Origin: Eledone cirrhosa
Lineage: Eukaryota
Length of the DNA: 64,000 bases
Assembly: GCA_964016885.1 (NCBI GenBank)
Contig: OZ024741.1
Coordinates: forward strand, 151,714,001 to 151,778,000
Direction of reading: 5' to 3'
Below the pieces are notes generated by a model. The model had not been told where the DNA came from and did no database searches. It worked only from the letters and a program-made list of their open reading frames with translations. The translations under genes were made by a program, and so were the position numbers. This document shows, piece after piece, positions 50,060 to 50,694 of this stretch; positions within the stretch are counted from its first letter, which is position 1; each line of letters starts with the position of its first letter.

Positions 50060-50694
50060 TGATGAAGGATCACTTTATTCATATGTAACCCATTTGCAAC
50101 CACGCAGCACGTTTATTCTCATATTTACACATATTTTCCCCACGCTATGACCCGTCTATTTCGTTCTTACTGCTTCTTCTTTCTCTGTATCTTTACCCTC
50201 TCTAACAGTTACTCTCTCTGTTAGCCTCTTCCTCACTCACTCTCTGTTACTACCTCTCATCCTCCTCCTTCTTCCCGTTTGACCTGTGCGTAATTCTTTT
50301 CTTTCGCACGCTTGGTCAGGCTGGTTCACCTTTTTTCTCTCTCTCGTCTACAATTTCACAGAACTTATGTTCACCGAATTCACAGACTAGATTCCTTCTT
50401 CCTCCCGTTAGACATGTACGGAATTCCTTCCTTGCTCACATTCCAACCAGGTTTGATGGTCTTTATTCTCTCTCGTGCACGATTTCACCGAAATTTGGGA
50501 CTTGATTCGTTCTTCCTCATTTTTCGTTGATTCACTATCTTTGTTTGTTTACGCTCTCGCTGTCCCATTTATTTACGTGTCCCAACGACTTTTTCTAGCC
50601 GTTGTTCGCACCAACCGGAGGTATATGGTCTTTAAAGCGAAGAAATACCGATGATGGTTGGAAGATCACTGATGAAGGACCACTTTATTCATAT
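50060..50694 (+). mobile_element. 610-nt non-coding unit with 25-nt terminal direct repeat (partial tandem), TA-flanked
   Basis: tgatgaagga(t/c)cactttattcatat at 50060 and 50670; pyrimidine-rich body. Confidence 0.7.
50616..50682 (+). ncRNA. Candidate pseudoknotted hammerhead-like motif, copy 2
   Basis: GGUAU-A-UGGUCU-UUAAAGCGAA-GAAAUACC-13nt-AGAUCA-CUGAUGA; same spacing as copy 1 with compensatory changes. Confidence 0.55.

Follow-up and report, generated by a model that had tools for sequence, protein, structure and literature searches.

Two sites in the window (the whole stretch of 64,000 nucleotides analysed here), 50620-50675 (+) and 29474-29419 (-), contain a hammerhead-like motif whose blocks follow the scrambled order cleavage site > GAAA > CUGAUGA, with identical spacing in both copies. 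According to the reading that we prefer, and that we judge reasonably probable from the sequences at hand, both are pseudoknotted hammerhead-like motifs of the SGC order, carried by non-coding tandem repeats inserted into (TA)n, the likely source of which is the 3' end of a Naiad-type Penelope-like element (PLE); the motif likely folds within a single copy and would cut after its NUH triplet. This small non-coding repeat is present in about ten thousand copies, to which the stretch in the window belongs. The two sequences quoted in the original prediction are present letter for letter at the spacing it gave, and the cut that it placed after 50625 is in the right position, whereas its ranges were padded by a few bases relative to the exact limits given above. 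Three elements go beyond that prediction, namely helix P0 together with its hairpin, a retroelement host present in ~10,000 copies, and the connection to Naiads. The parts of the two copies are the following:

50060-50691 (+): A1 non-coding element, a unit of ~610 bp plus a terminal overlap of ~22 nt, with (TA)n on both sides
50577-50582 (+): upstream arm of helix P0 (GUCC core), predicted partner 50677-50680; 4 contiguous bp, not significant alone
50583-50604 (+): conserved hairpin directly 3' of the P0 arm, with compensatory changes among A1, A2, A2b and B (by eye)
50620-50625 (+): 5' arm of stem III and the NUH triplet AUA; predicted cut after 50625
50626-50631 (+): 5' arm of stem I, from the covariation alignment
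50632-50641 (+): conserved linker (UUAAAGC and 3 nt), occupying the place of a stem II strand
50642-50649 (+): G12-A13-A14 and 3' arm of stem III, from the covariation alignment
50663-50668 (+): 3' arm of stem I, from the covariation alignment
50669-50675 (+): CUGAUGA core strand, read from the sequence
50676-50683 (+): post-core strand, 3' arm of P0 (GGAC); alternatively part of an 8-bp competing helix with the 5' arm of stem I
29320-29565 (-): subfamily B element, a 5'-truncated copy between (TA)n runs
29489-29515 (-): P0 upstream arm (29515-29511) and hairpin (29509-29489) of the B copy, predicted pairing
29419-29474 (-): SGC-order core of the B copy; predicted cut after 29469

A strict SGC descriptor (CUGANGA, GAAA, NUH, a 6-bp stem I and a 5-bp stem III) picks out these two sites and no others in the window, and 300 dinucleotide shuffles produced 1 match in total. 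By itself, the word CUGAUGA occurs in the window no more often than expected (8 seen vs 8.05 expected), and hammerheads are absent among the best 150 of the 285 matches of an Rfam scan. Both core strands of a hammerhead, CUGANGA and GAAA, are present, which is partly circular as both belong to the search patterns.

Across the genome (G000, 3.0 Gb) the 19-nt core common to both window copies has 1,314 exact matches (control 0), a looser pattern built from the linker word, GAAA and CUGANGA has 10,132 (control 7), and a version of the pattern without the main subfamilies has 209 (control 9). The copies sit in non-coding units with a spacing of 455-806 bp, frequently as partial tandems arranged head to tail, and one locus (L111) is an array of 9 units. 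Some copies carry an inverted 5' piece, and (TA)n flanks most of them; the first TA run lies mostly 7-18 or 54-62 nt past the core (loci L001-L030, some of which are duplicate views of one site). The claim that the hosts of the two window copies are otherwise dissimilar holds at best in part: the copies are not independent, a homologous upstream hairpin and strand being common to both.

Pairing within the motif

The covariation analysis is based on an alignment of 32 copies, hand-picked from 127 distinct matches with the aim of covering the subfamilies (about ten) and avoiding truncated copies. In stems I and III together, 92.9% of the cells are paired, as compared to 70.2±1.6 in shuffled alignments, and two-sided changes number 100 versus 37.2±5.8; neither value is reached in any of 500 shuffles. 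Two weaker measures of covariation are not significant (33/500 and 209/500 shuffles). Two-sided changes affect ten of the 11 pairs, the exception being A15.1-U16.1, which is U-A in 30/32 copies and stays fixed. Alignments that were slid as a control are 26-55% paired. When the majority sequences of 11 subfamilies are considered, stem III is paired in 54/55 cells and stem I in 62/66, with permutation figures of 1/20000 and 0/20000, respectively, which are not true probabilities because the subfamilies are related. Of the original prediction, the hammerhead-like core in a non-circular order, with covarying stems I and III, is supported.

The same conclusion emerges from matches that were not hand-picked for their stems: 61 of 111 distinct core matches in G000 pass the stem test, as do 2 of 103 chance matches taken from viral contigs, and many of the failures in G000 are truncated or old copies selected for being deviant. 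The cleavage-site triplets in this set are AUA (42), GUA (14), AUC (2), GUU (2) and GUC (1). The repeats exhibit an NUH triplet with the A15.1-U16.1 pair, and stems I and III around the core. The lengths of the linkers are nearly constant across the aligned copies, which fits folding in cis. The UUAAAGC linker is invariant among the matches in G000, an invariance that is circular because the linker served as the search anchor. A separate observation concerns an A five bases past stem III (column 43 of A1, window 50654), which is invariant in 32/32 copies and lies outside all search patterns; it possibly makes a tertiary contact with the linker.

The canonical stem II, on the other hand, is missing, as the original prediction had maintained. 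Between the strands that follow CUGANGA and precede GAAA, respectively, 40.2% of the cells are paired, below the 44.1% of the shuffled alignments (497/500 shuffles are as high), and at most a first pair is found at this position, in 19/31 copies. Accordingly, the repeats lack both the stem II of a hammerhead and the uninterrupted block G of type SGC, in which the stem II strand, GAAA and a stem III strand follow one another. Pairing of the linker with the post-core strand was considered and rejected after pairing tests on the subfamilies and on the 32-copy alignment. A conventional GAAA strand further downstream, which would have counted against the original prediction, was not seen by eye in the printed tandem units.

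Instead, the strand following CUGAUGA can pair with a strand located 35-43 nt upstream of stem III, directly followed by a hairpin (in A, B, one D and one G copy); this is the helix that we call P0. In subfamily C the upstream strand lies 16 nt from stem III and the hairpin is absent, and two D copies have a P0 of 11-12 bp at 29 nt, with changes between both copies. At the matching place, P0 has 4 bp in A, up to 7 in B, 6 in D and 7 in G. Taken singly, no copy gives significance to P0, the score of which is attained by 164 to 1941 of 2000 shuffles, and its cognate duplex energy beats the non-cognate ones in 5/11 subfamilies (B, C, C2, D and G1) and is no better in the five A subfamilies and G2; the case for P0 comes from its recurrence at a matching position. 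Of the downstream helix that in type SGC links the far sides of stems I and II, nothing was seen by eye, and P0 may fill its role. It must be noted that the window A1 copy may fold poorly, because the competing 8-bp helix (-9.0 kcal/mol) is stronger than stem I (-4.4 kcal/mol).

Penelope-like elements and the origin of the repeats

The repeats resemble Naiad PLEs (PMC8557442) in (TA)n targets, in partial tandem and inverted copies and in the 3' tail, features that also occur in other PLE clades and hence are not diagnostic. They differ from Naiads in that their units code for no protein and lack an ORF with an N-terminal GIY-YIG and a C-terminal RT domain. Craig et al. 2021 (PMC8557442) described Naiads as devoid of a canonical hammerhead, with 10 families labelled 'HHR_core' and 8 'HHR_half_core'. 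We read their consensus file by eye, rather than by computation, around unbroken CUGANGA words and at 16 record ends; coverage was places 26-60 of 62 for one CUGANGA word, and 3-22 of 43, 23 and 25 for the others.

Read by eye, 11 of the 54 Naiad consensus families clearly combine the SGC order with NUH and with stems I and III (Chem-3, Amil, Aacu, Anas, Movir-2, Plae, Ptep, Obim, Ovul, Esco and a further record that is probably a Darwinula family), corresponding to about 8 independent cases, because Amil/Aacu/Anas and Obim/Ovul are near-duplicates. Most of these also display P0 and the hairpin, so that the P0-hairpin-SGC layout of the window elements is visible at published Naiad 3' ends, and the upstream hairpin of Naiad_Obim resembles that of A and B (all by eye). 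In Plae the linker instead pairs with the post-core strand over 7 bp, close to a true stem II (by eye). Six nematode Naiads (Parc, Nbra-1, Nbra-2, Nbra-3, Hcon and one that is probably Asuum) exhibit by eye the other permuted order, type CSG, with stems I-III. Bfor and one further record fit only partially, several Naiad cores, Skow-2 among them, did not parse as either order, and no hammerhead core was seen in the record ends read for Chem-1, -2, -4 and Movir-1 (all by eye).

Two further observations were made at Naiad 3' ends. At the place of the permuted hammerhead, Naiad-4_Chem, Naiad-1_Movir and Naiad_Mmer carry a sequence that looks twister-like when compared by eye with a twister consensus. 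Naiad-1_Chem and Naiad-2_Chem share two blocks conserved between otherwise divergent 3' UTRs, possibly another structured RNA.

In G000, the motif was not found physically joined to a Naiad ORF. The core pattern modelled on Naiad_Obim has 0 matches in G000, and a pattern for the Naiad DKA motif has 1, a decayed RT, from which a protein search retrieved 90 relics. These ~90 Naiad-like RT relics (L131-L162) are decayed, mostly with 65-85% DNA identity over the aligned pieces, and are classed by motif resemblance only. Exact cores preceded by a GAAA occur three times in the 1.5 kb downstream of 30 of the 90 relics (1 in sense, 2 in antisense orientation), none recognised as the motif, and no Naiad ORF was recognised in 5-kb regions of G000 upstream of 20 diverged copies of the motif. 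Homologs of a relic fragment were found neither at E<=0.001 nor in viral contigs. Among the best 30 of 150 matches of a PF01541 search none resembled the N-terminal endonuclease of Naiads, and most were C-terminal and Neptune-like. The shared layout, as read by eye, points to the 3' end of a Naiad-type PLE as the likely origin of the repeats. We regard as evenly balanced the broader proposition that hammerheads in non-circular permutations are borne by many Naiads and by non-coding parasites of these, with the SGC form in cnidarians, an acanthocephalan, arthropods and cephalopods and the CSG form in nematodes. In the widespread SGC form, a helix made with a strand far upstream would then take the place of stem II, contrary to the assumption that the GAAA block is never interrupted, and the resulting core of four strands would cleave itself within a single copy.

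The PLEs of the window were considered as the source of the motif and rejected, because they have a C-terminal GIY-YIG domain and CUGANGA-hairpin-GAAA cores of their own in the 3' UTR. Their ORFs (47347-49988 (-), 51983-53749 (-), 56726-58762 (-) and 58751-61939 (+), the last being an open frame of 1,062 aa) belong to two young families with RT and C-terminal GIY-YIG, and the copies are 96-99.8% identical in a fold-back arrangement. Hammerhead cores in the CUGANGA-hairpin-GAAA order occur in their 3' repeats at 5792, 37102, 37221, 44514, 44646, 51765, 54138 and 54534, and also at 47099, 56454 and 62210. Some of these cores form inverted pairs, which explains spurious miRNA matches in Rfam. In the first of the two families, stem III of the hammerhead is very short (minimal type I). 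The A element lies next to these PLEs, within a TA run.

A third PLE family was observed elsewhere in the genome (L009, G000:C1:52122885-52125903, minus), the 3' end of which carries a textbook minimal type I hammerhead with a palindromic stem III; directly downstream of this hammerhead lies an A2 copy starting at about the predicted cut. The window also contains two broken copies of non-LTR retrotransposons with endonuclease and RT frames, at 1582-4934 (+) and 7504-11699 (-), presumably L1/Tx1-like according to their motifs.

Predicted cleavage, mobility and alternative explanations

We propose that the motif would fold in cis as a pseudoknot, with stem III, 1 nt and stem I in succession and loops of 14 and 11-14 nt. 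P0 would stack where stem II normally sits, the UUAAAGC linker would carry the chain from stem I back to G12, and the predicted cut falls after the NUH triplet. If the cycle is analogous to that of non-LTR retrozymes, cleavage of tandem transcripts could release unit-length RNAs that become circles, and a PLE reverse transcriptase/endonuclease, borrowed for the purpose, may copy these into TA microsatellites. An enzyme other than that of Naiads must move the young copies, because the Naiad-like RT is present only as decayed relics and no Naiad ORF was recognised upstream of the 20 copies examined; the helper is likely to be found among the abundant TA-associated PLEs with a C-terminal endonuclease. 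At one locus (L018) the tail of such a PLE is joined to the motif with only TA between them. As regards the 5' ends, 155 junctions fall at or just before the predicted cut (5 positions), 151 just after it (6 positions) and 36 in a third interval (3 positions), compared to 7,220 copies intact over the cut; TA microhomology dominates. Inspection by eye places 14 of the first 100 junctions precisely at the cut, which corresponds to ~22/155 vs ~12 per position upstream, an excess that is confounded by TA microhomology and is given no weight here.

One argument against the cis-cleaving reading is that SGC-3 needed its stem II (PMC10085705), which the repeats here do not have. It is conceivable, albeit unlikely, that the fold is conserved but weak or non-catalytic alone, acting either as a protein-assisted ribozyme or as a structure that the PLE enzyme recognises close to where reverse transcription starts. 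Apart from the absence of stem II, this would agree with the clustering of 3' ends 7-18 and 54-62 nt past the core, adjoining the motif, and with the lack of a clear pile-up of 5' ends at the predicted cut. It is kept alive by the Anolis (Poseidon) PLE, the hammerhead of which is protein-assisted and the cleavage of which is dispensable for insertion in vitro (PMC11167929). However, the NUH triplet and the A15.1-U16.1 pair have been kept while all the other stem pairs vary. Likewise, the complete CSG hammerheads of nematode Naiads and the presumably twister-like motifs at the same place in other Naiads (by eye) argue for selection on self-cleavage. We find it rather improbable that an active hammerhead is assembled between two copies, in tandem units or from two RNAs, in the manner of the dimeric minimal type I hammerheads of PLEs. 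The tandem arrangement of the units and the short helices (stem III has -3.3 kcal/mol in one window copy and -1.3 kcal/mol in the other) speak for such an assembly, and PLE hammerheads reportedly cleave as dimers, as Lunse is said to have found in 2017. Yet, neighbouring copies are 455-806 nt apart, the fixed linkers are long enough for a cis fold by estimated geometry, no palindromic arm favouring dimers was seen, and SGC constructs of about 80 nt with one motif each cleaved (Eckert et al. 2023, PMC10085705).

By far the least probable explanation is a chance resemblance to a hammerhead in an abundant repeat, the copy number of which would reflect nothing but amplification. It could appeal to the absence of CUGAUGA enrichment in the window, to the inflation of the covariation counts by related copies and to the use of GAAA and CUGANGA as search patterns. 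However, it has already been largely refuted by the many distinct two-sided changes across subfamilies and by the stem test, which hardly any chance match passed, and it is also at odds with the recurrence of the motif in published Naiads of several phyla, where it was located by the CUGANGA word alone.

Should the motif cleave, as we consider reasonably probable, it would explain why Naiads, which are among the most abundant PLEs of invertebrates, were thought to be devoid of hammerheads. Non-circular permutations of the hammerhead would then move from rare environmental RNAs to animal genomes, at 10^4 copies, the hammerhead core would be seen to tolerate a strand break at the position of stem II, and surveys using type I-III descriptors alone would have missed a whole set of elements. 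The candidate RNAs are 60-120 nt long and hence can be tested by one series of in vitro transcriptions.

Comparison with known hammerheads and retrozymes

The topology was proposed as new, but its order is that of type SGC, one of the six block orders of hammerheads defined by Eckert et al. 2023 (PMC10085705), who demonstrated cleavage in vitro for five SGC RNAs from environmental sequences, at rates of 0.007-0.19 per min. The window motif resembles this type and departs from it in lacking stem II: in SGC-3 all four helices, stem II included, were required for cleavage, and the blocks were assumed not to be interruptible (PMC10085705). The sources in the SGC oligo table of the supplement are IMG/M accessions and one bacterial RefSeq record (PMC10085705). 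Type CSG, known from two unique soil-DNA sequences (Eckert 2023, PMC10085705), has an order unlike that of the window motif and bears on the Naiad link only. In the portion accessible to us, a November 2026 paper credits alternative hammerhead forms to Eckert and Forgia, plus one more reference. The accessible portion of Eckert 2023 (PMC10085705) does not describe a form without stem II, with P0 and in a genomic retroelement, and our literature search, with thin coverage of subscription journals, found nothing that links Naiads or animal repeats to SGC or CSG hammerheads.

In common with type SGC (HRIMA-1 and the SGC variants; PMC10085705), the motif has the S>G>C order, two crossing helices, the full core and NUH, and it shares UUA right after the 5' arm of stem I with three SGC variant rows. 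In contrast, the RNAs of Eckert et al. form stem II with the strand directly before GAAA, they build the I/II helix with a strand downstream of stem III (here the post-core strand would pair upstream, forming P0), and they come from environmental contigs rather than from a genomic retroelement. With the metazoan non-LTR retrozymes (PMC7229834; Li et al. 2026, preprint 10.64898/2026.07.22.740005) the repeats share tandem non-coding units in thousands of copies, one hammerhead motif per unit and co-occurrence with PLEs. However, those retrozymes contain type I hammerheads in units of 150-450 bp, whereas the repeats described here have no type I hammerhead and carry the SGC order in units of 455-806 bp.
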